Source: Candidatus Omnitrophica bacterium UBA6253
GTDB taxonomy: Bacteria > Omnitrophota > Gorgyraeia > Gygaellales > Profunditerraquicolaceae
Assembly (NCBI GenBank): GCA_002441245.1
Contig: DJVP01000011.1
Coordinates: 53,295-117,294, forward strand
Length of the DNA: 64,000 nt
Direction of reading: 5' to 3'
The notes under the pieces are model-generated. The model ran no database searches and was not told the origin of the DNA. It worked only from the letters and a program-made list of their open reading frames with translations. The number at the start of each line of letters is the position of its first letter. Within the stretch, counting starts at the first letter, position 1. The translations under genes were made by a program, and so were the position numbers. Below are positions 4,134 through 29,087 of this stretch, in pieces.

Positions 4134-4152
4134 AAAGGAAGCAGGTGGATTA

Positions 4153-4554: not shown

Positions 4555-4581
4555 AAAAATAGAAACACCCTCCTTTTTATA

Positions 4582-10879: not shown

Positions 10880-11832
10880 TGTTCATTGACAGCTCTAAAA
10901 TAAACGTCCGGGCTGGCAGTGGGGGTAAAGGGTGCAAAAGTATCTACCGCGACAAGTATCAACGTCAAGGAAAAGCTGATGGCGGAGACGGGGGCAAAGG
11001 CGCTGATATTATCTTTCGCGCAGACCACAATCTGCTTACGCTTTTGGATTTTCAATATCATCGGCATTTTTTTGGCGCACACGGAGGCCACGGCAGCAGT
11101 AATCATAAAAAAGGCAGGGCCGCAGAGGATGTAATCGTACGCGTCCCGCTGGGGACAGTGATAAGAGATGCCACAACAGGTTCTCTTCTGCGTGATTTAA
11201 ATGAAGATGGGCAGGAAGTAATTGTTGCCAAGGGCGGAAAGGGCGGGATAGGCAATTGGCATCGTAAAGAAGCGACTCCCGGAGAGTCAGGCGAAGAAAG
11301 GGAAGTTATTTTAGATTTAAAACTCCTGGCTGATGTGGGGGTAGTGGGATTTCCTAATGCGGGAAAATCCACATTGATAACGGCAATATCAAATGCCCGG
11401 CCGAAAATTGCAGCTTACCCGTTTACGACTATGGGGCCGGTTTTAGGAATTGTAAATTCTGGGCATAAAAAATTTGTTATTGCGGATCTGCCTGGTTTGA
11501 TTGAGGGGGCTTCAGAAGGGCGCGGGCTGGGAGATAAATTCCTAAAGCATGTTGAACGTACCAAGGTCTTGATTCACATGGTGGATATTGCTGGTTTTGA
11601 GGGCAGGGACCCGGTAGATGATTATAAAAAGATTAACCTGGAATTAAAGAATTACAACAAAGTTGTTTATAAAAAACCGCAGGTTATTTGTGCCAACAAA
11701 ATGGATATTGAAGGCGCAGAGAAAAATTTAAAAAGGTTCAAGAAGTTAATTAAAAATCCTGTTTATGCGGTTTCGGCATTAGAGAAGACAAATTTAGGGG
11801 AGTTAATTGATGCGGTCGCAAAGAAATTATAA
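10879..11832 (+). CDS. obg: GTPase Obg/CgtA
   Basis: Obg N-terminal glycine-rich fold (GGDGGKGADIIF) followed by a G domain with GFPNAGKST and DLPG motifs. The start codon overlaps the rplU stop (TAATG). Confidence 0.9.
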   Translation: MFIDSSKINVRAGSGGKGCKSIYRDKYQRQGKADGGDGGKGADIIFRADHNLLTLLDFQYHRHFFGAHGGHGSSNHKKGRAAEDVIVRVPLGTVIRDATTGSLLRDLNEDGQEVIVAKGGKGGIGNWHRKEATPGESGEEREVILDLKLLADVGVVGFPNAGKSTLITAISNARPKIAAYPFTTMGPVLGIVNSGHKKFVIADLPGLIEGASEGRGLGDKFLKHVERTKVLIHMVDIAGFEGRDPVDDYKKINLELKNYNKVVYKKPQVICANKMDIEGAEKNLKRFKKLIKNPVYAVSALEKTNLGELIDAVAKKL

Positions 11833-13830: not shown

Positions 13831-14393
13831 AGATTGGCATCTTAGGCGGAACTTTTAATCCGGTGCACATCGGCCATTTGATTCTGGCAGAGGAGGCAAG
13901 AGAGAAATTAGGGCTGGATAAGATTATCTTTATTCCTACAGCCTTGCCGCCGCACAAGGATAATTTAAATATTGCTCCGGCGGATAAAAGGCTAAAAATG
14001 TTAAAGTTGGCCATAAGGGGCAACCGGCACTTTGCAGTTTCGGATATTGAAGTTAAACGCATGGGCCGTTCTTATACGATTGATACATTGAAAGAATTGA
14101 AGTGCAGATACAGCCGTGATGAGCTTTATTTTATTATTGGTTCTGACCTGCTTAAATATTTAAATGAGTGGAAGGATTTAAGCGAAATAACCAAGATGGT
14201 AAAATTTGTAGTTGCAACGCGGCCGGGTTACCCTCTTGAGCAGATACCGCATTACATGCAGACTTTAGCTATCCGAGCAGTAGATGTTTCAGGTTTTGAA
14301 GTGCGGCAGGCAGTGGCGAAGAATAAGTCATTCGGTTACCTGGTGACAGATAAGGTTTTTGACTATATCAAGAAAAGCAAGCTCTATAAGTAG
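13827..14393 (+). CDS. nadD: Nicotinate-nucleotide adenylyltransferase
   Basis: MKIGILGGTFNPVHIGHL carries the (H/T)xGH nucleotidyltransferase motif. The TAG stop at 14391-14393 lies inside the first repeat module. Confidence 0.85.
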   Translation: MKIGILGGTFNPVHIGHLILAEEAREKLGLDKIIFIPTALPPHKDNLNIAPADKRLKMLKLAIRGNRHFAVSDIEVKRMGRSYTIDTLKELKCRYSRDELYFIIGSDLLKYLNEWKDLSEITKMVKFVVATRPGYPLEQIPHYMQTLAIRAVDVSGFEVRQAVAKNKSFGYLVTDKVFDYIKKSKLYK

Positions 14394-14548
14394 ACAGTCT
14401 ATATAATTATTTGATAATAGATGAGTTATGAAACAAATACATGTAAGAGAGAGGAACATAATAAAATAAGAAGTTGTTTTAGTTATTTTGAATCAAAATA
14501 TTTGTTTTATAAATAATTGGTTTGCAAGATGTTACATACACTGTCTAC
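14390..14548. repeat. REPIN-like inverted doublet of the GTAGAC-W-GTCTAC module; it fills the whole nadD-rpe intergenic region.
   Basis: The left arm at 14390-14402 is GTAGACAGTCTAT. The right arm at 14537-14548 is TACACTGTCTAC. Both arms align over ~50 nt with the other module copies (AATATTTGTTTTRTAAC ... TTACGTAGACTGTCTAC). Confidence 0.6.
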
Positions 14549-14549
14549 T

Positions 14550-15197
14550 ATGATAAAGATAGCGCCATCAATATTATCGGCTGATTTTAGTAATCTTGCG
14601 CTTGAGCTTAAAAAGATTGAACGTGCGGGAGCGGATTTAGTCCATGTTGATATAATGGACGGGCATTTCGTGCCGAATATTACAATCGGTCCGGTAGTCG
14701 TAAAATATATACGCAGTTCGACCAGGCTTCCTCTGGATGTGCATTTGATGATTGAAAATCCTGCTAAATATATAGGCGCCTTTATCAACGCCGGAAGCGA
14801 TATGATTACTGTGCATATTGAGGTTGTAGCCTTAAAAGAATTGGCAGCTATTGCCAGGGTGTTAAAGAAAAACGGGATAAAACTGGGGATTTCGTTAAAT
14901 CCGGCAACCCCTTTATCCAGGATTAAGAAAGCCTTGCCGCTGGTCGATTTTGTTTTGGTGATGTCGGTTAACCCCGGATTCGGCGGACAGGCCTTTATTC
15001 CGTCAGCGTTAAATAAAATACGCCAGCTTCGCGCAATCTTTAAAAAAGATATCGCCGTAGACGGAGGGATTAATAATGTTACCGGCAAGCAGGTAAGGCA
15101 GGCAGGGGCAAATATCCTTGCCGCAGGTTCGTATATTTTTGGGGCAAAGAATACAAAAAAAGCAATTAACAGTTTAAGAAAGGACGAGACTCGATGA
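14550..15197 (+). CDS. rpe: Ribulose-phosphate 3-epimerase
   Basis: MIKIAPSILSADFSNL...VHVDIMDGHFVPN...GG. The likely true start ATG at 14550 sits 2 nt after the repeat. The track ORF starts at 14517, inside the repeat. Confidence 0.85.
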   Translation: MIKIAPSILSADFSNLALELKKIERAGADLVHVDIMDGHFVPNITIGPVVVKYIRSSTRLPLDVHLMIENPAKYIGAFINAGSDMITVHIEVVALKELAAIARVLKKNGIKLGISLNPATPLSRIKKALPLVDFVLVMSVNPGFGGQAFIPSALNKIRQLRAIFKKDIAVDGGINNVTGKQVRQAGANILAAGSYIFGAKNTKKAINSLRKDETR

Positions 15198-16585
15198 GCA
15201 ATGCAGTTTCACAAATCAAATTCGGCACCGACGGTTGGAGGGCGATTATCGCAGATACTTATACTTTGGAAAACGTAAGGATTTTGAGCCAGGCAGTGGC
15301 GGATTACCTGGGCAGCGGCAAGAAAGTTGGGATTGGATATGATACGCGTTTCATGTCCGCTAAATTTGCCGAGGCAGCTGCAATAGTATTAAAGAATAAC
15401 GGTATGGAGGTTGTCCTTTCTGACAGGCCCACGCCTACGCCGGCATTAAGTTTTGTTGTAAAGTCGCGTAAGCTGGACTTAGGGATTATGATTACCGCTT
15501 CGCATAACCCGGCAGAGTACAATGGTTTTAAAATTAAGAATTCCGCTGGCGGCGGAGCTAGCCAGGAGTTAACGCGGGAGGTTGAAGGTTTACTTGGCAA
15601 GAGCCCGGTAAAAGATGCAACTTTGCTTGAGCCGATTAAGGCCGTGGATATCACTAAGGATTATATAAAGTTTATCCGCAATTATGTTGATTTAAAGAAG
15701 ATCAAAAATAAAAAGTTTAAAGTCTTGGTTGATTCTATGTATGGCTCCGGAGACAGCTTCATTGCTCAGGTACTTAAGGGTACAAGCATAAAACTGGAGT
15801 TTATGCGCAATACGATCAATCCTTCTTTTGGCGGAGGCAGGCCTGAGCCGGTGGAAGAAAACCTGAAAGAATTAAAGGAACGAGTAAAAAAGGAGAAGTT
15901 TGATTTAGGTATTGCTTTAGACGGCGATGCCGACAGGATAGCCGCGGTTGCACCCGGTGGAGTATTTATCCACCCACAGAAGATATTAGGGTTGTTGGCT
16001 TTGCATCTAAACCAGGACAGGCATTGGAGCGGCGGCTTGGTCAAGACAATTTGCGGTACGACGATGATGGATAATATCGCAAAATTCCTGGGGATTAAAC
16101 TTTATGAAACTCCCGTAGGCTTCAAATACATCTCAAATCTCATGGAGACTGAAGATATCGTTGCCGGAGGAGAAGAAGCTGGCGGTATGGGTGTAAAGGG
16201 CTATATCCCTGAACGCGATGGGACTATGGCAGGGCTTTTGCTGATTGAAATGATGGTTTATCGCAACAAGAATATGCTGAAGATTTTAAACGAGGCTGAA
16301 AAATCGTTTGGTAAATATTATTATGTGCGTCAGGATTTGCATTTAACTAAACGTGTTGAGCCAAGAAAAGAAAGTTTGCCATCTGAATTATTAGGCAAAA
16401 AGGTTGTGGATGTCAAAGATTACGATGGCATAAAACTTATCTGTGAAGACCAGAGCTGGCTGATGTTCCGCAGCTCGGGGACTGAGCCGATTATGCGCAC
16501 CTACGCTGAGGCAAAGAGCCTCCTGCGGGCAAATAAGCTGCTTGCGTTGGGAAAGGAAATAATTTTGAAAGATGTACAGATTTAG
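15194..16585 (+). CDS. Phosphomannomutase/phosphoglucomutase (alpha-D-phosphohexomutase)
   Basis: The active-site loop ITASHNPAEYNGFK (phospho-Ser) and the GDGDADR metal-binding loop are both present. Confidence 0.85.
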   Translation: MSNAVSQIKFGTDGWRAIIADTYTLENVRILSQAVADYLGSGKKVGIGYDTRFMSAKFAEAAAIVLKNNGMEVVLSDRPTPTPALSFVVKSRKLDLGIMITASHNPAEYNGFKIKNSAGGGASQELTREVEGLLGKSPVKDATLLEPIKAVDITKDYIKFIRNYVDLKKIKNKKFKVLVDSMYGSGDSFIAQVLKGTSIKLEFMRNTINPSFGGGRPEPVEENLKELKERVKKEKFDLGIALDGDADRIAAVAPGGVFIHPQKILGLLALHLNQDRHWSGGLVKTICGTTMMDNIAKFLGIKLYETPVGFKYISNLMETEDIVAGGEEAGGMGVKGYIPERDGTMAGLLLIEMMVYRNKNMLKILNEAEKSFGKYYYVRQDLHLTKRVEPRKESLPSELLGKKVVDVKDYDGIKLICEDQSWLMFRSSGTEPIMRTYAEAKSLLRANKLLALGKEIILKDVQI

Positions 16586-17159
16586 CCGGTTTGTATTGCT
16601 GATAATTTTGAAATTATTTTTCCTTTTTGAAGTTAAGGGCAGGGAAAATATTCCTAAGGAAGGCGGATTTATCTTGGCGGCTAACCACGTCAGCTACCTT
16701 GACCCTATAGCCGTAGGCGCAGCCTGCCCGAGGACAGTGCATTTTATGGCCCGGGATAATTTATTCTTTAAGCCGTTTCTTAAATCATGGCTTAAGGCAG
16801 TTGGTGTTATCCCGCTTAAAAGAAACGCCGCGGATTTATCGGCGATTAAGACAGGATTAAGGATTGTGCATAAGGCAGGGGCATTAGCGTTATTCCCTGA
16901 AGGCACGCGAAGGACAAAAGAAAATATGTATTTAAACCCTGAGCCGGGAGTAGGGTTTTTGGCGGCAAAGGGAGGTGTGCCGGTGATTCCAGCTTTTGTT
17001 TCCGGCACATATAAAGCAATGCCGAGGCAGGCGCGGTCACTGCATTTAACAAAAATATCCGTGTACTTCGGAGAAGAAATTCATATAGAAAGGGGGAGGT
17101 CTTATCAGGAAATTTCGCATCTGATAATGGCTAATATCAAGCAATTATCACTTAATTAG
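16572..17159 (+). CDS. plsC: 1-acyl-sn-glycerol-3-phosphate acyltransferase
   Basis: HX4D motif AANHVSYLDP and FPEGTRR motif. Confidence 0.75.
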   Translation: MYRFSRFVLLIILKLFFLFEVKGRENIPKEGGFILAANHVSYLDPIAVGAACPRTVHFMARDNLFFKPFLKSWLKAVGVIPLKRNAADLSAIKTGLRIVHKAGALALFPEGTRRTKENMYLNPEPGVGFLAAKGGVPVIPAFVSGTYKAMPRQARSLHLTKISVYFGEEIHIERGRSYQEISHLIMANIKQLSLN

Positions 17160-17210
17160 TTATTTAAAACTAAAAAATCAAAATCTAATAAAGAAAGGAA
17201 GTAATTTAAA

Positions 17211-18755
17211 ATGTCAAGCATGACAAGAGAAGAATTAGAGCAGATGTATAATCAAAGCATTAAAGTTTTAAAAGAAGGCCAGGTAGTTACCGGAAAAATT
17301 GTGGGGATTAAGAGCAAGGAAGTTTTAGTGGATGTGGGTTTTAAATCCGAAGGGATTGTTCCGATTACGGAATTCAGCTCCGGAGATTTAGAGACTGGCA
17401 AGGAGATGGAGTTTTTGCTTGAGACTATGGAAAATGACGCCGGGGTAATGACCTTGTCACGCGAAAAGGCCATGCGTATGCAGGGTTGGGATAAGATTGT
17501 CAAGTTGTCTAATGAAGGCACTTTAGTTGAAGGTAAGCCGGTAAAGAAGGTTAAAGGCGGATTCCTGGTTGATATTATGGGAATCGAAGGGTTCTTGCCC
17601 AGTTCGCTTTCCTCCTTTCGTAATATTCCGGACAAGGATATATTGTATAAGATGTTTAAGTTTAAGATTGTTAAGGTGAATAATCTTCGCCGTAGTATTA
17701 TTGTCAGCCGCCGCGAAGCAGTGCAGGCAGACAGGGATGTGGCCAAGGGCAAGATTTGGGGAGAATTAAAGATCGGCAATATCTATCCTGGGTTAGTTAA
17801 AGCGATTACCGATTTCGGCGCTTTTATTGATCTAGGCGGGGTAGACGGCCTGTTGCATATTACGGATATGTCCTGGTCAAAGATCAGCCATCCGAGCGAG
17901 ATTGTGGCTATCGGGGATAAGATTGAGATCATGGTTTTAAATATGGATCAGGCATCAGGCAAGGTTTCTTTGGGCCTCAAACAGAGGCTTGCTGACCCAT
18001 GGCAGGATATCGGCGAGAAATTCAGTGTTGGAGCAAAGGTAAAAGGTAAGGTAGTTAACATACTGCCTTACGGAGTTTTTGTGGAGTTGGAAAAAGGGAT
18101 TGAAGGCTTAATCCATGTTTCCGAGATCTCCTGGACTAAACGCGTGAATAATCCGGGCGAGATGTTTGCCGTCGGAGATATACTGGAAACTCAGATTCTA
18201 AGCGTGGAAAAAGAATCCCGAAGGATATCCTTGAGTTTAAAACAGTTGGAGCAGAACCCTTGGACTGAAGCCGAAGCTAAATATCCGGTAGGCGCAAAGG
18301 TATCCGGTAAAGTCCGCGGCTTCACTGATTACGGTGCATTTGTCGAGTTGGATTCTAACCTTGAGGGGATGATCCATGTGTCTGACCTTTCCTGGACCAA
18401 GAGGATAGGTCATCCGCAGGATGTATTAAAGAAAGGGCAGAAGATTGATGTCACTGTACTTTCTGTTGATGCTACCAACCGCAGGATTGCTTTAGGATTA
18501 AAGCAGTTGCAGGATAACCCCTGGTCAAAGATAGCTGAGAAGTATCCTCTGGATACTGTATTGGAAGCTGAGGTGTCCAGCCTGACGGAGTTTGGCGTGT
18601 TTGCTAAGTTAGATGATGAACTGGAAGGCTTGATTTACTCTAGTGAAATCGAGAAAGAAACAGTTGCCAATTTGAAACCCGGAGATAAAATAAAGGTAAA
18701 GGTAATCAAGGTGGATGTGGAGCAGGCTAAGATCGGCCTGACTGCCCGTTTATAA
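17211..18755 (+). CDS. rpsA: 30S ribosomal protein S1 (multiple S1 domains)
   Basis: 514 aa with repeated S1 motifs (G.V..I.DFGAFVDL, GL.HISE). Confidence 0.9.
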
Positions 18756-19921
18756 TGGATATAAGTAAACAAATAGAGACAATTAAAAGGGGCGCTGCGG
18801 AGATAATCTCTGAGGGGGAGTTGTATAAGAAACTCGACCAGAGTATTAAAACCAAGCGCCCCTTAAAAATCAAGGCCGGTTTTGACCCTACTGCCCCGGA
18901 TCTGCATTTAGGTCATACCGTGCTTTTGAGGAAGCTGCGCCAGTTCCAGGATTTAGGGCATGAGGTTTATTTTCTGATCGGCGATTTTACCGGCCAAATC
19001 GGCGATCCCAGCGGTAGATCGGAAATCCGCAAGCAGCTTTCAAAATCAGAGGTTGTTAAGAACGCCCAGACCTATAAAAAGCAAGTGGCCAAGATCCTTG
19101 ATACCTCAAAACTAAGAATAGTTTTTAATAGTAAGTGGTTTGAAAAAATGTCGGTTGTAGAAATGCTAAAACTTACTACTTATTCTACGGTTTCCCAAAT
19201 GCTTGCCCGCGACGATTTTAAAAAGCGTTATGCAAAAGGAGAGAATATCTCTATCCTGGAATTTATTTATCCTTTGATGCAGGGGTATGATTCAGTTGTG
19301 CTTGAGGCTGATGTGGAACTTGGGGGGACTGACCAAATCTTTAATCTGCTGGTTGGCCGCGAATTACAAAAAGATTTTAACCAGGCTCAGCAGGTTGTGC
19401 TCACCATGCCGTTATTGGAAGGAACTGACGGCGTGCAGAAGATGAGTAAAACTTACGGCAACTATGTTGGCATCAATGAGCCGGCAAGCGATATATTCGG
19501 CAAGATTATGTCAATCTCCGACGAGTTGATGTTTAAATATTATGAGCTGCTTACTGATGAAGATTTAAATTCAGTTAGAAGAATGCATCCTAAAGAGGCC
19601 AAAGTAAATTTAGCCAAGATTATCATTACCCAGTATCACTCTGCAGAAGCGGCGGAAAAAGAAGCGCAGGAGTTTGCCCGAGTATTTTCCCAAAAAGAGA
19701 CGCCTGCGGATATGCCGGTTTTTAAAACTGACGGCGAGAAAACAATCCTGGTTATTCTTGCTGAAAGTAAACTGGTTGCCAGCGGCAATGAGGCGCGCAG
19801 GCTGATTAAACAGGGGGCAGTCAGTTTTAATAATCTAAAAATAGAAAAAGATGATTTTGTTCCGAATGAACCCGGCATCTTGAAAGCCGGCTCCCGCAGA
19901 TTCCTGAAGCTTATTTTGTAG
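18755..19921 (+). CDS. tyrS: Tyrosine--tRNA ligase
   Basis: Class I HIGH motif (PDLHLGH), KMSKT motif and a C-terminal S4-like domain. The TAG stop at 19919-19921 lies inside the GTAGAC of the repeat. Confidence 0.9.
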
Positions 19922-20764
19922 ACAGTCTACGTAACTATATATTCCCCAGCCATATCTGTAAGAAATATTTCTATTTTTAAAATAAACTTCGTTAGATTTA
20001 CCCATCTCCTACGTCAATTATGATAGAAGGAGGGGAAAATTATGCCATCGTATGCGCGCAAGCATCAGCTTCAACAGTCATTAGCGTATCATGCGTTTAA
20101 CCGAAGTAATGGACGAAAGGTAATTTTTCAAGAACCGGGGGATTTTGATCGTTTTAAGACTTTACTTTACGAGTATGGTTTTAAGTTTGATGCAAAAATA
20201 TACCATTGGGTGATTATGCCGAATCATTACCATCTTGTGGTCGAATTTAATTTACCTGAGTTAATTTCGAAATTTATGGCAGGATTGCATCGGGCATATA
20301 GCCATTATTATCATAATCAATATAACTCGGTAGGTTTTTTATGGCAAGGCAGGTTTAAATTACAGCCGATACAAAAAGATTTATACTTGAAAAATTGCGG
20401 CAGGTATGTGGAGAGGAATCCGGTGCGCGCGGGAATGGTCAAAGAGGCCTGTGAATATGCGCATAGTAGCGCGCGGTTTTATTGTTTAGGGCAGGAAGAT
20501 GGTGTAACGCAAGTCAGTTGCGATTTTGAAAATTTTGGAAAAGAAGCAACTGGGCGCAGGGCAGTTTATAAAGAATTCCTGAGGGCTTTTGATAGCGAGG
20601 AAGAGGCGTACTTCTCAAACATAGAAATTCCTTGTGGTGACCAAGATTTCCTGCGTAGGCTGGTAAAAGCGAAGGGGCATTATTACCCGAGAAGGCAAGG
20701 TAGGAAGGCTGCAATATTTGTTTTGTAAACGCATATATTTGATATGATTGCATAGACTGTCTAC
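19918..20764. mobile_element. REP-associated tyrosine transposase (RAYT) unit flanked by inverted copies of the GTAGAC-W-GTCTAC module
   Basis: The left end at 19918-19934 is GTAGACAGTCTACGTAA, an inverted module. The right end at 20752-20764 is ATAGACTGTCTAC, a direct module. Between them lies the IS200-like Y1 transposase gene. Confidence 0.7.
20042..20728 (+). CDS. IS200/IS605-like Y1 (HuH) transposase of the REP-associated (RAYT) type
   Basis: HuH motif MPNHYHLVVEF. C-terminal motif YVERNPVRAGMV with the catalytic-Tyr context typical of PF01797 and RAYTs. 228 aa. Confidence 0.8.
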   Translation: MPSYARKHQLQQSLAYHAFNRSNGRKVIFQEPGDFDRFKTLLYEYGFKFDAKIYHWVIMPNHYHLVVEFNLPELISKFMAGLHRAYSHYYHNQYNSVGFLWQGRFKLQPIQKDLYLKNCGRYVERNPVRAGMVKEACEYAHSSARFYCLGQEDGVTQVSCDFENFGKEATGRRAVYKEFLRAFDSEEEAYFSNIEIPCGDQDFLRRLVKAKGHYYPRRQGRKAAIFVL

Positions 20765-20771
20765 AGATTTG

Positions 20772-20780
20772 TGGTATAAT
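20772..20780 (+). promoter_or_regulatory. Extended -10 (TGGTATAAT) just downstream of the right REP end, 8 nt before the SemiSWEET ATG
   Basis: TGnTATAAT pattern. There is no obvious -35 and it is very close to the ATG, so the transcript may be leaderless. Confidence 0.3.
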
Positions 20781-20788
20781 TATTAATT

Positions 20789-21064
20789 ATGCTTTGGCAT
20801 TTGATTGGCGCGATGGCCGCCACCTTAACCATGTTTTCTTTTATTCCGCAGATAGCCAGGTCTTTAAGGACTAAATCTGTAAAAGACGTCAGCCCGATTA
20901 CCTTATTCCAGCTTTCTGCCGGTGTTTTACTCTGGATGATCTATGGTATCGCGCGCAAGGATGTGATAATTATCGGCGCGAATCTGATAACTTTTATAAG
21001 CCTGGCAGTGCTTATTTTCTTGTATTTTAAATATAAAAAGGTGGATGTTTCTTTTAAGAAATAA
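20789..21064 (+). CDS. SemiSWEET (PQ-loop/MtN3 family) sugar transporter
   Basis: 91 aa with 3 TM helices and the PQ motif (FSFIPQIARSLRTKSVKDVS). It is close in sequence to characterised bacterial SemiSWEETs. Confidence 0.75.
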   Translation: MLWHLIGAMAATLTMFSFIPQIARSLRTKSVKDVSPITLFQLSAGVLLWMIYGIARKDVIIIGANLITFISLAVLIFLYFKYKKVDVSFKK

Positions 21065-21065
21065 C

Positions 21066-21114
21066 ATTTCTTTTATAAGTATCTATTGCATAACGAATTA
21101 CGTAGACTGTCTAC
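21066..21114 (+). repeat. Single direct-orientation repeat module ending in TTACGTAGACTGTCTAC at 21098-21114
   Basis: Aligns with the modules at 23811, 24970 and 28283 (..CATTTCTTTTATAAG..TAACGAATTACGTAGACTGTCTAC). It sits 27 nt upstream of the rmlA ATG. Confidence 0.6.
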
Positions 21115-21140
21115 AAGAGCTACAAGAGCAGGGGGGGTGA

Positions 21141-22007
21141 ATGAAAGGCATAATTCTGGCTGGTGGCAAGGCAACGCGTCTTTATCCTATAACTAAAGGT
21201 GTCTGTAAGCAGATGCTGCCGATTTATGATAAGCCGATGATCTATTATCCTTTATCAGTATTAATGCTGGCAGGTATACGGGAAATTCTGGTTATCTCTA
21301 CTCCCAAAGATACACCAAGATTTAAAGATTTATTGGGGGATGGCTCCAGCTTAGGGATTAAATTATCTTACTCTGTCCAACTTGAACCGAAAGGAATTGC
21401 CCAGAGTTTTGTGATTGCTGAAGATTTTATCGGCCGCGATAACGCCTGTCTTATCCTGGGAGATAATATTTTTTACGGTTATAATTTAAGCGAGCTCTTG
21501 CAGCAATCAGCCAGGATTAAGGATGGGGCGGTGATCTTTGGTTATTATGTCAAGGACCCTGAGCGTTATGGCGTGCTTGAGTTTAATAAGAAATGCAAGG
21601 TTACCTCGATTAAAGAAAAACCTATAAAGCCCAAATCTAACTGGGCGGTGGCGGGTTTGTATTTTTATGATAATAATGTGGTAAAGATTGCCAAGAATAT
21701 CAAGCCCTCTGCAAGGGGGGAGCTGGAGATCACTTCGGTAAATAACGAATACATCAAAAGAGGCAAACTCAGGGCGGAATTTCTCGGCCGTGGGCATGCC
21801 TGGCTTGATACCGGTACCTATGAATCGCTTATTGACGCATCGGTTTTTATTAAAACGATAGAAGACAGGCAGGGGCTTAAGATCGGCTGTATTGAAGAGG
21901 TGGCCTACCGTATGGGTTATATTAATAAAACACAATTGCTAAAGCTTGCCGGCCAGATACCGACCAGCTACGGCGAATACTTGAAGGATTTACTTAAAAA
22001 TGGATAA
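21141..22007 (+). CDS. rmlA: Glucose-1-phosphate thymidylyltransferase
   Basis: [18 protein letters not shown]...[11 protein letters not shown] is the RmlA signature. A G7 tract lies at 21131-21137 in the RBS region. Confidence 0.9.
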
Positions 22008-22821
22008 AAACATTTTAATTTTGGGAAAAGGGTTTATCGGCGAAAGGCTGCAAAAAGAGTTTGATTGCCCAATTGACGGCTCAATGATAAATTGTTTTAG
22101 CGACGCCGAGAAACTGGCCAAGAAATATGCCCCTAAAATAATCATAAATTGTATCGGCATTACCGGCAGGCACAATGTCGATGACTGTGAATTAGAGAAG
22201 GATGCGACTCTATTGGCAAACAGTTTTATCCCGGTAATTCTGGCTGAAGTTTGCCTGCGCAATAACATTAAGCTTGTGCATATAAGCAGCGGGTGTATTT
22301 TTAATTACGACTATAAGAAAAATGTATCGATAAAAGAAAATAGCCAGGATTATTTCTTCGGGTTGTTCTATAGCCGCAGCAAGATCTATTCGGAAAGGGC
22401 GCTTGATACGCTTAGCCGGGATTATAATATACTTATTGCCAGGATCCGCATACCCCTGCTTAATGCCAGGCATCCTAAGAACGTGTTAGATAAGCTTATA
22501 AAATACAAGAAAATAATCGATATTGCTAATTCCATAACTTATATACCTGATTTTATCCGGGCAATTAAACATTTGATAAAGATTGACGCCCGGGGGGTGT
22601 ATAATGTAGTAAATAAGGGCGGCTTGCGTTATCCGAGGCTTATGCGGGTTTATCAAAAATACGCCCCGGATTTTAAATTCAAAGTGATTGCCTTAAAGAA
22701 ATTAGGCCTGGCCAGGACTAACCTTATTTTGTCCACAAGCAAGCTTGAGAAAACAGGTTTTAAGGTCAGGAATATCAACTCAATCCTAGAAGAATGCGTA
22801 AAAGAATACCTAAAATCTTAG
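22000..22821 (+). CDS. NAD(P)-dependent sugar-nucleotide reductase, RmlD-like (dTDP-4-dehydro-6-deoxyhexose reductase candidate)
   Basis: 273 aa. N-terminal [13 protein letters not shown] Rossmann motif and a short-chain SDR YxxxK-like catalytic region. It sits between rmlA and rmlB. No rmlC was seen. Confidence 0.45.
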
Positions 22822-23786
22822 TTACCGGCGGGGCGGGTTTTATCGGCAGTGCCTTTGTCAGATTGCTGGTTAAAAACGGGATATCCCCTGTAGTTGTTGA
22901 CAAGCTTACCTATGCCGGAGACCTTAAGCGCCTTGAGGAGGTAATGGGCAAATTTAAATTCTATAAAACCGATATCTGCAGCAAAAAAGGGATCGAGGCT
23001 GTTTTTGCTAAAGAGAAACCGGCTGTCGCAGTTCATTTTGCCGCTGAAAGCCATGTTGACCGCAGTATCCATGATGCTACTCCGTTTGTAGAGACTAATA
23101 TTAAGGGGACGCAGGTACTTCTTGACGCCAGCCGCAAACATAATATAAAGAAATTTATTCTAATCTCTACTGATGAAGTCTATGGAGAGATCGCCAATGG
23201 CAGGTTTAATGAAAATTCTCCGATTAAACCTAACAGCCCTTACGCCGCATCTAAGGCAGCGGCAGACCTTCTGGTGCAGGCGTATATTAGGACAAATAAT
23301 TTCCCTGCAATAATTATCCGGCCGTCAAATAATTACGGCCCGTGGCAATATCCGGAGAAACTTATCCCGCTTGCTATATTAAGAATATTAGGGGATGGTA
23401 AGGTACCGGTTTATGGCAAGGGATTAAATGTGCGCGAATGGCTTTATGTTGATGACTGTGTGCGAGGCATTATGATGATTATGCGCAAGGGTAAAATCGG
23501 AGAGACGTATAACTTAGGCAGCGCTTGCGAGAGTAAAAACATTGACACAATCAAATTATTGCTAAAAACCCTTGGTGTTGGCCATGACAGGTTTGAGTTC
23601 GTAAAAGACCGCTTAGGCCATGATATAAGGTACAGCCTTAATTCAAGAAAGATTGCCAAGGGGCTTGACTGGAAGCCGGGAGTTAAGCTTAGCCAAGGGC
23701 TTAAGCTCACAGTGGCTTGGTCGCTTAAGCATAAAACTTGGCTTAAGAGTAAGCTAGGCGATATTAATAAGCTATATAATAAATAG
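22794..23786 (+). CDS. rmlB: dTDP-glucose 4,6-dehydratase
   Basis: [16 protein letters not shown]... catalytic YAASKAAADLLV(Q)AY and DEVYG. Confidence 0.85.
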   Translation: MRKRIPKILVTGGAGFIGSAFVRLLVKNGISPVVVDKLTYAGDLKRLEEVMGKFKFYKTDICSKKGIEAVFAKEKPAVAVHFAAESHVDRSIHDATPFVETNIKGTQVLLDASRKHNIKKFILISTDEVYGEIANGRFNENSPIKPNSPYAASKAAADLLVQAYIRTNNFPAIIIRPSNNYGPWQYPEKLIPLAILRILGDGKVPVYGKGLNVREWLYVDDCVRGIMMIMRKGKIGETYNLGSACESKNIDTIKLLLKTLGVGHDRFEFVKDRLGHDIRYSLNSRKIAKGLDWKPGVKLSQGLKLTVAWSLKHKTWLKSKLGDINKLYNK

Positions 23787-23807
23787 AACCCCCTTTTAAT
23801 TTTAAAA

Positions 23808-23864
23808 GCTGTAGTATTTCTTTTGTAACTATTTATCTATAATGGAATTACGTATACTGTCTAC
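23808..23864 (+). repeat. Single direct repeat module, ...TTTGTAAC..TATAAT..TTACGTATACTGTCTAC, ending 4 nt before the ATG of the next gene
   Basis: GTAGTATTTCTTTTGTAACTATTTATCTATAATGGAATTACGTATACTGTCTAC. The TATAAT box is at 23837-23842. Confidence 0.6.
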
Positions 23865-23867
23865 TAT

Positions 23868-24935
23868 ATGGCGATTGTCATAGTTACAGGTTCCTGCGGG
23901 TTAATCGGCTCTGAAACTGTGAGTTTTTTTGCGGAAAAAGGCTTTGATATCGTCGGTATCGATAATAATATGCGCAAAAGTTTTTTTGGCGCTGACGGTT
24001 CAATCCTTTGGAATAAAAAACGCCTGCAAAAATTATATAAAAACTACCGGCATTATTCTGTAGATATCCGTGACCAGGGCAAAATCAATTCAATATTCAA
24101 GAAGTATAATAAAGATATCGCTTTAATTGTGCATGCCGCGGCCCAGCCATCCCATGATTGGGCGGCAAGAGAGCCGGCAATTGACTTTGGGATTAATGCC
24201 CAGGGCACGCTGGTTATGCTCGAGGCCTTGCGTAAATTATCCCCCCGCTCAGTTTTTATTTTTGCCTCAACGAATAAAGTCTATGGCGATACCCCTAACC
24301 GGCTTCCCTTAATAGAAAAGGAAAAACGTTTCGAGATCTCATTTGACCACAAATATTTCAAAGGTATTGATGAAACAATGAGCATTGACAACTGCCTGCA
24401 TTCGGTTTTCGGCGCCTCAAAGGTTGCCGCGGATATTATGACACAGGAGTATGGAAAGTATTTCCATCTTAAAACCGGAGTGTTTAGAGGGGGATGCCTT
24501 ACCGGGCCGGCTCATTCCGGCGCTGAATTACATGGGTTTTTATCATATATGGTTAAATGCTGCGTGACAAAACGCAAATATAAAATTTACGGTTATAAAG
24601 GCAAACAGGTCAGGGATAATATACACTCTTTTGATATGGTAAGTGCTTTTTATCATTATTTCCAGAGTCCCCGTTGCGGAGAAGTTTATAATATAGGCGG
24701 AGGCAGATTTGCCAATCTCTCGGTTATGGAAGCAATCGAGATGTGCGAAAAACTAAGCGGCGAAAAGTTTGATTATGAATATATTGATACTAACCGCATC
24801 GGCGACCACATTTGGTGGATCAGCGATGTATCTAAGTTTAAGGCGCATTATCCTGATTGGCAGTATAAGTTCGGCATAGAAGAAACTCTTCGCCAGATTG
24901 TAGACAGTGTACGTAATTCTCTTAAATCTAAATAG
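23868..24935 (+). CDS. NAD-dependent epimerase/dehydratase family protein (CDP-paratose-2-epimerase-like extended SDR)
   Basis: [15 protein letters not shown]...[15 protein letters not shown]. The last 12 codons overlap an inverted repeat module (GTAGACAGTGTACGTAA at 24900-24916). Confidence 0.7.
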
Positions 24936-25026
24936 TTAGAAAACAAATTTTTATCTGAATTAAAATACAGGTATAGTATTTCTTATATAACCTCTTATTT
25001 TTGATATAATTACGTAGACTGTCTAC
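24900..25026. repeat. REPIN-like inverted doublet: an inverted module at 24900-24957 and a direct module at 24970-25026 with TGATATAAT at 25002-25010
   Basis: The outer dyads are GTAGACAGTGTAC at 24900-24912 and GTAGACTGTCTAC at 25014-25026. The inner boxes AAATTTGTTTTCTAAC and GTATTTCTTATATAACCTCTT are conserved. Confidence 0.6.
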
Positions 25027-25033
25027 AAATCAA

Positions 25034-25402
25034 ATGCGGAAGACGATATTGATAATAGAAGACGATCCCCTAAATATGAGGTTGAGCGTTGATTTGCTTG
25101 AATTAAACGGTTTTAATACTCTAAGTTGTGAAGATGGCTGCAGCGCTCTTGAAACCCTAAAGAATACTATCCCCGACCTTATTCTGCTTGATATAAACAT
25201 GCCGAAGATGAATGGTTTTGAAGTTTATAAGAAAATAAGAGAAGATGACCGGCTAGATCAGGTTAAGGTAATTGCCATGTCTGGATCGGTGATGAAAGAA
25301 GATGAGCGAAGGATAGTTGCTGCCGGTTTTAATGATTTTGTGCCCAAGCCCATTGATATAAAGGGATTAGTAGGCAAGCTAAAAGGTTATTTATCTGTAT
25401 GA
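25034..25402 (+). CDS. Response regulator, receiver domain only (CheY-like)
   Basis: 122 aa with acidic pocket IIEDD, phospho-Asp LLDINMPKMNG and the conserved K in PKPI. Confidence 0.8.
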   Translation: MRKTILIIEDDPLNMRLSVDLLELNGFNTLSCEDGCSALETLKNTIPDLILLDINMPKMNGFEVYKKIREDDRLDQVKVIAMSGSVMKEDERRIVAAGFNDFVPKPIDIKGLVGKLKGYLSV

Positions 25403-26523
25403 AGGAATGCATGGAAGTAGAATATCGCGAGCTTGTAGAAAATGCTAATAGCATTATCCTGCGCATGGATATGAAAGGCAACCTTACCTTTTTTAATAGA
25501 TACGCGCAGGAATTCTTCGGTTATAGCCAAGAGGAGATTTTGGGGAAAAGCGTGATTGGCACTATAGTTGCCCCTACCGATTCATCCGGACGGGACCTTA
25601 AGGCGATGATTGATGATATAGTTTCCCATCCATTACGTTATGTTGAAAATAAAAATGAGAATATGCTTCGTAACGGCGAGAGGGTGTGGATAGCCTGGAC
25701 TAATAAAGCCATACTTGATAAAGATGGCCGCGTAGGAGGGGTATTTAGTATCGGTAACAATATAACCAAACTTAAACAAGCCGAAGAGGAAATATTAAAG
25801 GCAAAAGAGGCTGCAGAAAGCGCCAATAAAACCAAAAGTGCATTTCTTGCCAATATGTCGCATGAGCTAAGGACGCCGCTTAATGCGATTATCGGGTTTT
25901 CTGAACTGGTAAAAGATGAAAGCGTTGGGGCCCTTAATGGGAAACAAAAAGAATATCTCAATTATGTTTGGGAAAGCGGCAAGCACCTGCTTTCATTGAT
26001 AAATGAGGTACTTGATTTGTCGAAAGTCGAAGCAGGAAAAATGGAGCTGGAGCTGACCGAATTTGACCTAAAAGAACTTTTAAAAAAGAGCCTTATGTTT
26101 ATATCGGAAAAAGCAATGAAGCAGGAGATCACGCTTTTGACCGATATTGAAGAAGGCGTGGGAATTATTAAAGCTGATGAGAGAAAAATAAAGCAAGTAG
26201 TTTTTAATTTGCTTTCTAACGCTATGAAATTTACTCCTAAGGGGGGTAAGGTTAGTATTCAGGCAAAGATTGCAGGAGAAAATGAAGTTTTAATTTGTGT
26301 GTGGGATACAGGTATTGGGGTAGAAGCCAAGGATAGCCAAAAAATATTTTCTGAATTTGAGCAAATATCCAGTGAATATTCGCGTCAATATGCCGGGACT
26401 GGTTTGGGCATGCCTTTGAGTAAAAAATTTATTGAGTTGCATGGCGGCAAGATGTGGTTTGAAAGCGAGGGAAAGAGTAAGGGTACATATTTTTATTTTA
26501 CATTACCGTCTAAGATAGGCTAA
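25399..26523 (+). CDS. Cytoplasmic PAS-domain sensor histidine kinase
   Basis: A PAS fold follows a coiled region. H-box MSHELRTPLNAI. An N-box and G1/G2 HATPase_c follow (NLLSNAMKFTPKGG, GTGLGMPL). No TM segment. Confidence 0.8.
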   Translation: MKECMEVEYRELVENANSIILRMDMKGNLTFFNRYAQEFFGYSQEEILGKSVIGTIVAPTDSSGRDLKAMIDDIVSHPLRYVENKNENMLRNGERVWIAWTNKAILDKDGRVGGVFSIGNNITKLKQAEEEILKAKEAAESANKTKSAFLANMSHELRTPLNAIIGFSELVKDESVGALNGKQKEYLNYVWESGKHLLSLINEVLDLSKVEAGKMELELTEFDLKELLKKSLMFISEKAMKQEITLLTDIEEGVGIIKADERKIKQVVFNLLSNAMKFTPKGGKVSIQAKIAGENEVLICVWDTGIGVEAKDSQKIFSEFEQISSEYSRQYAGTGLGMPLSKKFIELHGGKMWFESEGKSKGTYFYFTLPSKIG

Positions 26524-26537
26524 CGAAAGGAGCAGAT

Positions 26538-26906
26538 ATGGCGAAGATTTTAATTGTGGATGATGATGAGATAATGCTTAAGCTCTATTCTGAGTTTTTA
26601 TCAAAGGAGGGTTTTGAAGTCCTTACTGCCGGCAATGCGGATAAGGGGTTTGATTTAGCTGCTTCTTGCCTGCCTGACCTTATCCTTTTAGATGTTATGA
26701 TGCCCGGAGTTGATGGAGCAGAGGCGCATGAGCGCTTGTCTAAAGATGCAAGAACTAGCGGCATTAAATTGGTTTTTTTGACCTCCCTGGTAAAGGCGGA
26801 GGAAGTAGCGGCTAACGAAGGGAATATCGGCGGGTTGGATTATATATCAAAATCCACTCCCAAAGAAGAGTTCATTAAAAGAATTAAAGAAATTTTAAGA
26901 TCGTAG
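26538..26906 (+). CDS. Response regulator, receiver domain only
   Basis: ILIVDDDEIM, LLDVMMPGVDG, and a conserved S/T and K. The TAG stop at 26904-26906 lies inside the repeat GTAGAC. Confidence 0.75.
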   Translation: MAKILIVDDDEIMLKLYSEFLSKEGFEVLTAGNADKGFDLAASCLPDLILLDVMMPGVDGAEAHERLSKDARTSGIKLVFLTSLVKAEEVAANEGNIGGLDYISKSTPKEEFIKRIKEILRS

Positions 26907-26960
26907 ACAGTTTACGTAATTTCTTTAAAAGTAGCAGGTTACAAAACAAATATTTATAAA
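26903..26960 (-). repeat. Single inverted repeat module (GTAGACAGTTTACGTAA ... GTTACAAAACAAATATT) between the response-regulator stop and the epimerase start
   Basis: Its reverse complement aligns base-for-base with the module at 28283 (AATATTTGTTTTGTAACCT...AATTACGTAAACTGTCTAC). Confidence 0.6.
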
Positions 26961-26963
26961 AAT

Positions 26964-28001
26964 ATGAAATATAATAATCTCTTGGTTGTCGGCGGGGCAG
27001 GGTTCATCGGCAGCAACCTGGCGGTCTATTTTAAAAGCAAATACCCGATACTTAAGGTTTACGCATTGGATAATCTTGTCCGCAGGGGAAGCGAATTTAA
27101 TCTGCCGAGGCTTAAAGAAAACAACGTTAAGTTTATCCGCGGGGATGTCAGGCGGCCCAAAGACTTGGAATTGAAATTTGATATAGATTTGATATTGGAT
27201 TGTTCTGCTGAGTCGTCGGTGTTGGCAGGTTATGAAAATCCATCTTACGTTATTGATACAAACCTAAACGGCACTGTTAATTGCCTTGAGCTGTGCCGCA
27301 AGCGCAAGGCAGGGATGATTTTTCTTTCCACAAGCAGAGTTTATCCTTATAAAAAAATAAACGCAATCAGCCGCCGGGAATCAAAGAGCAGGTTTGAGTG
27401 GAAGCTTTTCTCCGGTATTGATACGGATTTTTCTCTAACCGGGCCAAAGACTTTGTATGGCGCAACTAAACTGGCTTCGGAATTTATCCTGCAGGAGTAT
27501 ATTGCCGCGTACGGGATTAAAGCGGTTGTTAATCGCTGTGGGGTGGTTGCCGGGCCATGGCAGTTTGGCAAGATTGACCAAGGAGTGTTTACTTACTGGA
27601 TGCTGGCTCATTATTTCAAAAGGCCGCTTAAATATATCGGTTTTGGCGGCCGGGGTAAACAGGTCCGTGACCTTTTGCACGTTGACGACCTTTGCCGTTT
27701 GATCGACCTGCAGGTAAGCGGTCTTTCTAGATTAAGCGGAAATACTTATAATGTCGGCGGCTCAAGAGAGATAAGCCTTTCTCTGTTGGAAGCTACCGCT
27801 TTTTGCCAACAGATTACCGGAAATAAGATTAATGTTGGGTGCGATTTGCGTGAGCGTCCGGGCGATATCGCTATATACCTTACAGATAATAAAAAAGTTA
27901 CCCGGCAGCTGAAATGGAAACCGCAGAAGCAGGTTTCGGAGATCCTGAATGATATCTTTAACTGGGTTAAGAGTAATGAGGCTAAGCTTCGAAAACTATA
28001 A
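26964..28001 (+). CDS. NAD-dependent epimerase/dehydratase family protein (extended SDR)
   Basis: LLVVGGAGFIGSNLAVYF...YGATKLASEFILQEY. Confidence 0.7.
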   Translation: MKYNNLLVVGGAGFIGSNLAVYFKSKYPILKVYALDNLVRRGSEFNLPRLKENNVKFIRGDVRRPKDLELKFDIDLILDCSAESSVLAGYENPSYVIDTNLNGTVNCLELCRKRKAGMIFLSTSRVYPYKKINAISRRESKSRFEWKLFSGIDTDFSLTGPKTLYGATKLASEFILQEYIAAYGIKAVVNRCGVVAGPWQFGKIDQGVFTYWMLAHYFKRPLKYIGFGGRGKQVRDLLHVDDLCRLIDLQVSGLSRLSGNTYNVGGSREISLSLLEATAFCQQITGNKINVGCDLRERPGDIAIYLTDNKKVTRQLKWKPQKQVSEILNDIFNWVKSNEAKLRKL

Positions 28002-28002
28002 T

Positions 28003-28060
28003 ATAGACAGTTTACGTAACTTTATGGAATTATAATAGTTGTAAAACAAATATTACCGAA
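28003..28060 (-). repeat. Inverted repeat module (ATAGACAGTTTACGTAAC ... GTAAAACAAATATT), the left arm of a 331-bp doublet
   Basis: Its reverse complement is AATATTTGTTTTACAACTATTATAATTCCATAAAGTTACGTAAACTGTCTAT. Confidence 0.55.
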
Positions 28061-28097
28061 TTGAGCGCGGTTAGCTTTCTATAATACAGGAGGTGGC

Positions 28098-28262
28098 ATG
28101 GGCGATGAGGGTGGGTTTCTGGTGGATATTGACGGAAAGATATCTCTTCGTTGTTACAAGATTGAGTTTGATTATGACGAATACCAGTATGTGGTTAATG
28201 GTACGGAAAGGCATGAGCTTCCTTCCTGTGTAAAAAAGATAAATATTAATGTAGAAGGGTAA
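28098..28262 (+). CDS. Small ORF (54 aa) enclosed by the two arms of the repeat doublet; hypothetical
   Basis: An AGGAGG RBS at 28088-28093 lies 4 nt before the ATG. The ORF reads MGDEGGFLVDIDGKISLRCYKIEFDYDEYQYVVNGTERHELPSCVKKININVEG. It is absent from the ORF track only because of the length cutoff. No family recognised. Confidence 0.3.
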   Translation: MGDEGGFLVDIDGKISLRCYKIEFDYDEYQYVVNGTERHELPSCVKKININVEG

Positions 28263-28282
28263 GGGGTTACATGTAAAGTTGA

Positions 28283-28333
28283 ATATTTGTTTTGTAACCT
28301 CTTGGCTTTTATGAAATTACGTAGACTGTCTAC
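28283..28333 (+). repeat. Direct repeat module (AATATTTGTTTTGTAACC...TTACGTAGACTGTCTAC at 28317-28333), the right arm of the doublet
   Basis: This is the best consensus copy. It ends 8 nt before the ATG of the 28341 gene. Confidence 0.6.
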
Positions 28334-28340
28334 TAAGTAA

Positions 28341-29087
28341 ATGATTAAATTAAAGGATACTTTTCGCAAACGTTTTATCGCCGCTGAATCTGATACCCTC
28401 GTTATTGAAACTATTCAAACAATCTCCAAAACCAAACGCCAGAAACTCCGCTTACTCAGACTCAAAGGCACCTGGCGCGCAAACGAATATAATGAGCTAG
28501 TCTTTCAAGCAGCAGTCCGAAGAGGTTCTCCTGAAAAATACACCTTTAAAGGTGCCTGGAAAATAAACAAAAACCAGCAGATTGAATATAACTGTGGCGA
28601 AGGCCCGGATGTGTTGACATTTAAGGGCTACTGGAATATATCTTCAGCTAATAAGCTTGTTTATATTATAGAGGGCAGCTCAACTTCGCGCTTTGAATTC
28701 AAGGTTCAGCTTGAATCGCCCACACTTTACCCTAAAAAAGGAGAGATCCGCTATCGTATCGGCATAGGCACTCGTAAAAGCCGCCTAAGCGGCCCAGGCC
28801 AGATAGTTATTCTTTACGGTGAATGGAAGTTTGGCCGCAATTTAGGGTTAACTTTTCAGATGGATTATGGCCAGGGGAGGATCAAGGAAATAGAATTCGG
28901 CGCGGCTGTTTCCTTTGGGCGTAACAAGGTAATCTTTGCTCTTAAAAATGAATTTGGCAAACCCTTAGGCATAACTCTTGCCATGACGCATAAATTCCTG
29001 AAAGCCATTGATGCCGAAGCATTTATAAGATTGAAATCCCGCCAAAATGAACAGTCAATAGAAACCGGAGTTGCCATCCCTTTTTAG
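28341..29087 (+). CDS. Hypothetical protein (predicted beta-rich, no recognisable family)
   Basis: 248-aa ORF with a clean start right after the repeat. It has repetitive K/G-rich alternating hydrophobic strands (FKGAWKINK, FKGYWNISS). Confidence 0.45.
   Translation: MIKLKDTFRKRFIAAESDTLVIETIQTISKTKRQKLRLLRLKGTWRANEYNELVFQAAVRRGSPEKYTFKGAWKINKNQQIEYNCGEGPDVLTFKGYWNISSANKLVYIIEGSSTSRFEFKVQLESPTLYPKKGEIRYRIGIGTRKSRLSGPGQIVILYGEWKFGRNLGLTFQMDYGQGRIKEIEFGAAVSFGRNKVIFALKNEFGKPLGITLAMTHKFLKAIDAEAFIRLKSRQNEQSIETGVAIPF

Follow-up and report, generated by a model that had tools for sequence, protein, structure and literature searches.

A 52-nt repeat module at gene junctions around a RAYT-like transposase gene in Omnitrophota

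The DNA considered here is a 64,000-nt stretch (the window) of contig DJVP01000011.1 from Candidatus Omnitrophica bacterium UBA6253 (assembly GCA_002441245.1), and all coordinates are positions within it. Its 62 long open reading frames (ORFs) all lie on the + strand and are tightly packed. Between 14390 and 28333, eleven copies of a short repeat unit, here called the module, are found at the junctions of genes that include nadD, rpe, tyrS, a SemiSWEET gene, rfbA, rfbB, two epimerase genes, and a two-component operon; one pair of copies brackets a gene for a transposase resembling the REP (repetitive extragenic palindromic)-associated tyrosine transposases (RAYTs; Table 1). Modules are oriented by their dyad, which lies at the 3′ end of direct copies and at the 5′ end of inverted ones. 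An earlier note on this DNA had listed eleven copies with the dyad, and motif scans together with an ungapped alignment recovered all of them, the second dyad starting at 14536 rather than at 14537.

Table 1. Modules, genes, and leader between 14390 and 28333 of the window. L labels denote loci of relatives.
Feature	Position	Strand	Remarks
Module 1, inverted	14390..14441	-	Dyad 14390-14402 gives nadD stop TAG; left arm of doublet 14390-14548; orthologous copies in L001, L030, L051
Module 2, direct	14497..14548	+	Degenerate dyad ATACACTGTCTAC at 14536-14548; rpe ATG at 14550
Module 3, inverted	19918..19969	-	Dyad gives tyrS stop TAG; left terminal repeat of transposase unit; orthologues in 8 species
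Conserved leader	19992..20041	+	GTTAGATTT, then pyrimidine arm, CGTCWATT loop, purine arm with Shine-Dalgarno
RAYT-like Y1/HUH tyrosine transposase gene, 228 aa	20042..20728	+	Stop TAA inside box1 of module 4; Pfam, NCBIfam, and PDB matches
Module 4, direct	20713..20764	+	Right terminal repeat of transposase unit 19918-20764 (847 bp)
Module 5, direct, solo	21063..21114	+	SemiSWEET gene/rfbA junction; SemiSWEET stop TAA at box1 start; site empty in L023, L045, L038
Module 6, direct, solo	23813..23864	+	rfbB/first epimerase junction; ATG 3 nt past dyad, without Shine-Dalgarno; site empty in L023, L035
Module 7, inverted	24900..24951	-	Epimerase ORF reads through to TAG 24933-24935; left arm of doublet 24900-25026
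Module 8, direct	24975..25026	+	Right arm of 127-bp doublet; 23-nt spacer retains CTGAATTAA
Module 9, inverted, solo	26903..26954	-	Dyad gives second response regulator stop TAG; second epimerase ATG 9 nt past box1
Module 10, inverted	28003..28054	-	Degenerate dyad ATAGACAGTTTAC, 1 nt past second epimerase TAA; left arm of doublet 28003-28333
54-aa ORF	28098..28262	+	Good Shine-Dalgarno; lies between modules 10 and 11; homologue adjoining module in L014
Module 11, direct	28282..28333	+	248-aa ORF ATG 7 nt past dyad; 96% identical orthologue in L014

Once oriented by the dyad, the eleven copies align without gaps over ∼52 nt and share a fixed length of 52 nt, in which box1, (A)ATATTTGTTTTGTAAC, is followed by 16 poorly conserved nucleotides, AATTAC, and the terminal dyad GTAGACTGTCTAC. 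The distance between GTAAC and AATTAC is thus fixed at 16 nt instead of varying from 12 to 20 nt as had been proposed, and the TATAAT-like element of the consensus given in the earlier note is not consistent among copies, neither in the conservation profile nor in a promoter scan. The dyad GTAGACWGTCTAC, with one mismatch at most, was matched nine times in the window (0.00 expected from shuffles), and the 16-mer TACGTAGACWGTCTAC, with up to three mismatches, also recovered the degenerate copies at 14536 and 28003. Box1 is present at 8 of the 11 module sites, against a chance expectation of 2.3 matches in the whole window. Motif, box1, and profile scans and a repeat finder detected no module in the other 50 kb of the window; by the repeat finder, the 52-nt module is the only genuine repeat family in the 64 kb. 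A box1-like match at 29125 was considered as a degenerate outlying copy and rejected, as it lacks the dyad. Nine of ten intergenic gaps of at least 50 nt between 14 and 29 kb contain a module, so that modules do occupy nearly all the spacers of this array, as the earlier note had it; a 51-nt gap at 17160-17210 is without one, and none was found in the ∼12 gaps of at least 60 nt elsewhere in the window. In all modules, an almost invariant single A stands in the middle of the spacer, at position 23 inward from the outer G of the dyad and 9 nt from TTAC.

The 228-aa protein encoded between modules 3 and 4 matches Pfam Y1_Tnp (2.8e-15); its best NCBIfam match is the REP-associated tyrosine transposase (REP_Tyr_transpos, NF047646) at 60.2 bits, with IS200 at 20.5 bits, and its sole PDB relative is TnpA-REP of E. 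coli (4ER8). Aligned to the latter, the HUH motif reads HYH versus HMH, and the tyrosine of Y-x-x-x-N-P lies in RYVERNP versus DYIYINP. These matches bear out the link between a REPIN-like element (REPINs being doublets of REPs that form hairpins) and a RAYT gene drawn in the earlier note. The two bracketing modules have box1 toward the gene and the GTAG termini outward, and nine more copies are present in the window beyond this pair, where none was expected. In at least eight species, orthologues of the transposase (64-85% amino acid identity) are located between tyrS and the SemiSWEET gene. Inverted modules were present on both sides of these syntenic orthologues, except in the most distant one, L051, for which the left module alone was detected, and in five species the interior of the transposase unit has the same length, 740 nt. 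Recognizable modules also mark the ends of homologues at 62% and 54% identity, which lie in unrelated genomic contexts. Most transposase homologue clusters were found on one contig; a second, shorter Y1 paralogue is present in L053.

We consider it likely that the module is the terminal inverted repeat of a system of the REPtron/TIRtron type (TIR, terminal inverted repeat), that is, of a single, vertically inherited RAYT-like Y1/HUH transposase gene accompanied by short non-autonomous repeats from its ends. The transposase would recognize the terminus and box1 on single-stranded DNA, would cut at the GTAG/CTAC end, and would move or copy doublets in the manner of IS200/IS605.

The distribution of the module was surveyed by a scan of one genome per species for the exact 16-mer TACGTAGACTGTCTAC, which returned 50 stretches, with blocks of 8 kb surveyed around the matches. 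Approximately 33 of the 50 came from metagenome-assembled genomes (MAGs) labeled Candidatus Omnitrophota or from one mislabeled bin syntenic with them. An nhmmer model of the 11 window copies found the full module of 50-55 nt in every Omnitrophota locus; in the stretches from other phyla, it matched only the 16-mer used for the search, and these stretches are therefore chance matches. Full-length modules are thus present in at least 10 Candidatus Omnitrophota species, with 22 in the surveyed blocks of one MAG and 12 in those of another. Sharing is not confined to the 13-bp dyad; an alignment of 95 distinct copies from these species, in which box1 and box2 likewise keep a fixed distance to the dyad, yields the consensus aaTATTTgTTttgTAAct..tt...t...A...agTTACgTAgACTGTCTAC.

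The four box1-facing (head-to-head) pairs described in the earlier note (14390-14548, 24900-25026, 28003-28333, and the pair around the transposase gene) were all confirmed. Each of the 14 module pairs less than 60 nt apart is arranged box1 to box1, eight of them with a spacer of 14-15 nt (the mode), and the canonical doublet accordingly spans 118-119 bp (52 + 14-15 + 52 nt). Among all neighboring pairs, no tandem or dyad-facing modules were closer than 298 nt. As single-stranded DNA, doublets fold into one long hairpin (z ∼-5). The folds of single modules are no more stable than those of shuffles (z -0.6 to +1.4), with only a mini-hairpin at the dyad, 5 bp with a 3-nt loop. Because a single module has neither a fold of its own nor a consensus structure, it is best described as a terminal inverted repeat with a 13-bp terminal dyad and not as a palindromic REP. 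The only inverted repeat noticed within the module, GTAAC...GTTAC, was rejected as a structure, since no obvious compensating changes were seen in the copies, which were read by eye only. A known RNA family was likewise discarded; Rfam at E ≤1 over 13.5-29.5 kb gave only a chance snoRNA match.

Orthologous loci, which the earlier note had suggested should be compared for empty sites, provided both filled and cleanly empty junctions. The window, L026/L040, and L051 have the module at the SemiSWEET/rfbA junction, and L023, L045, and L038 have an empty site there; the rfbB/epimerase junction holds a module in the window, L040, and L051 but none in L023 and L035. L041 carries two modules, 98% identical with the variable part and ∼25 nt beyond box1 included, one between rfbA and an rmlD-like gene and the other between the latter and rfbB. 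The corresponding gene pairs overlap in the window; the L041 inserts provide an upstream stop (one TAG, one TAA) and a new ATG for the downstream gene. In addition, L010 and L048, which belong to one MAG, carry doublets at unrelated loci that are 89% identical over 119 bp, spacer included, between unrelated flanks, with the identity beginning and ending exactly at GTAG/CTAC, as expected of a doublet replicating as a unit within a genome. The doublet of L028 is a third relative of this pair, in inverted orientation, and at least four copies in the L010/L048 MAG have one variable region in common. No direct repeats that would indicate target-site duplication flank the compared copies. As orthologous junctions are either filled or empty, and near-identical copies occur at unrelated loci without target duplication, the element has moved.

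Instead of belonging to the Y1 enzyme, the modules might be miniature inverted-repeat elements (MITEs) of another transposase, for example a DDE enzyme encoded elsewhere, with the Y1 gene merely a frequent neighbor. A 52-nt, terminal, inverted repeat without a stable hairpin is indeed closer to a classical MITE than to a REP, and classical MITEs (Correia, RUP, and ERIC) are also short, intergenic, and bounded by terminal inverted repeats, and can donate stops or signals. They differ from the present element in target-site duplication, which was not seen at the compared copies, and in the associated enzyme, which is Y1 here and not DDE. Moreover, modules border the Y1 gene in the examined species and contexts, non-syntenic ones included (on the left only in L051), the Y1 stop codon lies inside box1, and the termini begin with GTAG as do RAYT-linked repeats (PMC3733652). 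Of all the explanations considered, we regard this one as the least probable.

How the modules come to lie at gene boundaries is best seen from the stop codons. As claimed in the earlier note, the TAG of GTAGAC serves as the stop of nadD (14391-14393), tyrS (19919-19921), and the second response regulator (26904-26906), and one copy follows closely on a TAA (27999-28001, then 1 nt, then the degenerate dyad); the first epimerase ORF (23868-24935) runs through the dyad of module 7. When genes of at least 100 codons that run toward a dyad were surveyed and counted as independent sites, the stop was the TAG of GTAG at ∼10 sites and the TAA of ACGTAA at ∼7; it lay deeper in the module at 3-4 sites and 0-11 nt before the module at ∼9. 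Orthologous nadD genes have differing stop frames among species. In the conservation profile of module copies, the positions flanking the dyad are far less conserved than the module, and no conserved flanking target motif was found. The highly site-specific insertion proposed in the earlier note is thus not supported, given the lack of a target motif and of target duplication and the genes ending in all three frames. Targeting of stop codons as such was also rejected, given the mixture of frames and the many copies situated just downstream of a native stop.

Because of these mixed frames and weakly conserved flanks, survival of non-specific insertions at gene ends is favored over a sequence-specific target, and selection in a compact genome would explain the boundary position better than site-specific insertion does. 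In such a genome, with all genes on one strand, only insertions at gene ends would survive. When read from the dyad side, the module has fixed stops in two of three frames, a TAG at positions 2-4 and a TAA at positions 15-17. An insertion that interrupts only the final few codons of a gene would then be tolerated, which may account for the stop-in-dyad pattern. A practical consequence is that gene-end overlaps made by modules can mislead gene callers. Four genes start 1-7 nt past a dyad with no recognizable Shine-Dalgarno (23865-23870, 14549-14552, 25027-25036, and 28334-28343); their orthologues in relatives, like other genes of the window, are preceded by clear sites of the GGAGG type.

Position relative to starts raises the question of whether the module could be a host cis-regulatory unit, spread by ordinary duplication and kept for the control of flanking genes, either as a promoter plus 5′ leader in the direct orientation or as an operator whose 13-bp dyad is bound by a dimeric protein. 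Such a unit would fit the position of direct copies, which stop 1-26 nt ahead of start codons, the two-part architecture with its fixed spacer, and the constraint on individual orthologous copies, which well exceeds that on synonymous sites; the dyad half TAGACA/TAGACT also resembles a −35 hexamer. On the other hand, 5 of the 11 copies face the opposite way and sit on stop codons, there is no −35/−10 pair at conserved module positions (promoter-like matches in the region, 52, barely exceed the 38.5 ± 6.2 of shuffles), and the same genes work in relatives without a module at the junction. The second epimerase gene of relatives even has a TTGACA-N17-TAAGAT promoter downstream of the module, and the strict pairing of modules box1 to box1 in doublets of 118-119 bp is typical of mobile elements, as is the occurrence of near-identical copies at unrelated loci. 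A purely regulatory unit is therefore very unlikely in our judgment. A promoter inside the module was discarded separately, as the consensus scan gave no consistent −35/−10 at conserved positions and the conservation profile is unlike that of a −10 element. At 20753-20780, TAGACT, 16 nt, and TGgTATAAT together resemble a good promoter of the extended −10 type directed into the SemiSWEET gene, and the dyad half also serves as −35 hexamer in three other top-scoring promoter-like sites.

The genes enclosed by modules vary among species. In relatives, the doublet between the two epimerase genes holds an ORF6N-domain gene, which is intact in L035 and L051 but has decayed in L023 and L040. The 127-bp doublet at this site of the window retains CTGAATTAA, the last ORF6N codons, at the same distance from the direct module, and is thus most likely an internal-deletion derivative. 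An operon of response regulator, PAS-histidine kinase, and response regulator is present with module 9 in the window lineage only (25034-26906); relatives have a direct module and the ordinary promoter mentioned above directly before the second epimerase gene (L023 5987-6108, L040 4293-4412, and L035 1200-1360). L054 has a Zeta-toxin gene and a small ORF in place of the nadD/rpe doublet (3977-4705), and a BrnT toxin pair between two direct modules adjoining the transposase gene (10774-11290). L045 is without the segment that matches 23.8-28.3 kb of the window (both epimerase genes and their modules); there, rfbB is joined to the 248-aa ORF through a GC-rich hairpin, GGGACTGTCCCCGAAGGGGACTGTCCC, without a module (7119-7174). 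Neither the 54-aa nor the 248-aa ORF of the window had a family match in Pfam or NCBIfam.

The GTTAGATTT leader of the transposase gene, with the loop CGTC(A/T)ATT, also occurs upstream of accessory genes, namely those for ORF6N, a 332-aa protein, a YhcG/DUF1016 protein, and the second Y1 paralogue. The 332-aa protein is presumably RhuM/Fic-like, as judged by eye and not from a family-library scan. Leader copies in relatives were found in L018 (2176), L023 (831/5781/7246), L026 (1463), L040 (4016), L045 (1388/2803), L051 (9953/14957), L052 (9936), L053 (127/1453/1630), L054 (9953/14067), L014 (1395), and L035 (74). The arms vary among loci yet remain complementary (RNA fold z -2 to -5), and the leader has no Rfam match. 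In IS200, the ribosome-binding site for the transposase is masked by a stem-loop, and here the purine arm of the leader likewise holds the Shine-Dalgarno. The leader may act as a hairpin in the RNA, repressing translation, or as one in the DNA.

Such gene traffic could also mean that the modules are recombination sites or hotspots for the exchange of accessory blocks. They would then delimit cassettes in a variable sugar-nucleotide locus, whether or not the transposase takes part. Module-bounded blocks do differ among species (the two-component operon, the ORF6N gene, the L054 toxins, and the segment loss in L045), and the transposase gene and several cargo genes have a leader motif in common. 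Yet no cassette was observed to recur at a second locus between the same module boundaries, cargo lies between inverted and tandem modules alike, and operon boundaries tolerate insertions and rearrangements anyway. Family scans of the proteins of the region revealed no site-specific recombinase. We rate exchange by recombination lower again than cis-regulation.

In the lineage of the window, movement of the proposed terminal repeat appears to lie in the past. Contigs of GCA_028718365.1 and of two sequencing runs match the window at 99.6-100% identity. In 85 orthologous module pairs, the outer 7 nt have an identity of 0.99, compared with 0.82 for box1 and 0.69 for the variable part; between the window and the same relatives, the four-fold degenerate sites of tyrS reach only 0.40-0.61. 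The outer terminus, 5′-GTAGACAGT, is nearly invariant, and the conservation of the extreme terminus ACTGTCTAC and box1 in every copy far exceeds that of synonymous sites. For most window copies, relatives have an orthologue whose variable region is 0.6-0.94 identical, compared with an average of 0.41 among paralogues in the window. From the orthologous copies, the identities relative to four-fold sites, and the strain contigs free of insertions or deletions at modules, it follows that the family is old and static in this lineage and that its copies are constrained or homogenized. The mobile module of the earlier note thus stands insofar as the element has moved, as filled and empty sites and near-identical copies at unrelated loci attest, but the movement is historical and not demonstrably current in this lineage. 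Current mobility in the source population was dismissed on account of the strain contigs.

Several points weigh against a RAYT-driven terminal repeat. No insertion or excision differences at modules exist among the contigs that are 99.6-100% identical to the window, and as most window copies are orthologous with those of relatives, their conservation could reflect a host function apart from transposition. The protein scores below the NCBIfam RAYT cut-off (60.2 vs 80 bits for NF047646), and its link with the modules is one of position only. RNAalifold on the 95 copies gave no consensus structure, and the single module is not palindromic, unlike classical REPs, the hairpin of which is what E. 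coli TnpA-REP binds. Finally, the window copies are clustered within ∼8 kb of the transposase gene, whereas most REP families are dispersed.

A different reading of the same constraint is that the modules are domesticated, host-maintained punctuation of gene boundaries rather than mainly mobile DNA, each copy being kept individually and the transposase and cargo genes being co-regulated by a Shine-Dalgarno-sequestering leader. The invariant terminus, the conservation of box1 near synonymous saturation, the concentration of copies around the transposase gene in a variable sugar-nucleotide locus, the stops supplied (in L041, starts as well) that split overlapping genes, and the joints at which ORF6N, toxins, and the two-component operon come and go could all be accommodated in this way. 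We nevertheless think it unlikely, though less so than any other alternative to the RAYT-linked terminal repeat.

If the module is the end-repeat of a RAYT-like transposase unit, its closest counterparts are the TIRtron/TIRYT and REPtron systems (PMC3733652), in which a RAYT-like HUH/Tyr gene also lies between inverted repeats that overlap its 3′ end. The 52-nt arms, of which the right one overlaps the 3′ end of the ORF, agree with the definition of a TIRtron/TIRYT in that study, as do a moderately abundant repeat family of singles, dimers, and clusters and GTAG termini that donate TAG stops. GTAG repeats were reported to supply the TAG stop to flanking ORFs often (Di Nocera, De Gregorio & Rocco 2013, PMC3733652), long inverted repeats flanking RAYT-like genes can form families of singles, dimers, and clusters, and TIRtron-type systems occur in the PVC superphylum (PMC3733652). 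The present long repeat differs in that it starts with GTAG itself, within a 13-bp perfect dyad, which places it between the classes "GTAG REP" and "unrelated TIR" of that survey; Omnitrophota and the present sequence family are absent from the survey, and the copies described here cluster around the gene.

With the REPIN-RAYT systems of Pseudomonas and E. coli (Bertels & Rainey 2011, PMC3116915; Bertels et al. 2017, PMC5581495), the present one shares a transposase that is probably single-copy and vertically inherited, as RAYTs are described to be (PMC5581495), a non-autonomous unit of two inverted repeats with a short spacer and a hairpin, long persistence, and the occurrence of singlets beside doublets. 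It differs in its 52-nt, non-palindromic halves, in copy number (tens in the surveyed blocks, not hundreds), in window copies that diverge in the middle and form no tight sequence cloud, and in the sub-threshold score of its 228-aa protein. A classical REP, an imperfect palindrome of 20-40 nt with its own stem-loop, also has GTAG at one end; here GTAG lies within the dyad and is not an unpaired tag, and a single module has no stable fold. IS200/IS605 elements have the Y1 HUH fold and the absence of target duplication in common with the present unit, but their ends are two different subterminal hairpins on one strand, not inverted repeats, and the gene is syntenic across species here and probably not multi-copy.

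Stop donation by GTAG repeats and RAYT-like genes with long inverted repeats were thus already described in 2013; their occurrence in Omnitrophota is not previously described, and a literature search found no paper joining Omnitrophota with RAYTs. REP/REPIN-type systems, which have been studied almost only in Proteobacteria, are thereby extended to an uncultured phylum. Of particular note are a 52-nt arm that is bipartite and not palindromic, copies that cluster around the gene and are individually deeply conserved, and the common leader. One locus-fixed transposase gene with end-repeats kept at orthologous junctions, though synonymous sites are near saturation, amounts to a natural series; some lineages have proliferated the repeats and others are static, which bears on persistence by replication versus host upkeep.

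Some minor observations remain. Between 32000 and 64000 of the window, where there are no modules, G+C falls from ∼0.42 to 0.29-0.38, all genes are on the + strand, and GC skew is positive throughout. In L026, L040, L056, L018, L010, and L048, a contig end falls at a module or no more than a few dozen bases away; modules apparently break short-read metagenome assemblies. In L035 (1276-1322, reverse strand), the module terminus CTGATGGRATTACGTAGACTGTCTACATAAT is tandemly duplicated (31 nt), which results in two adjacent dyads.

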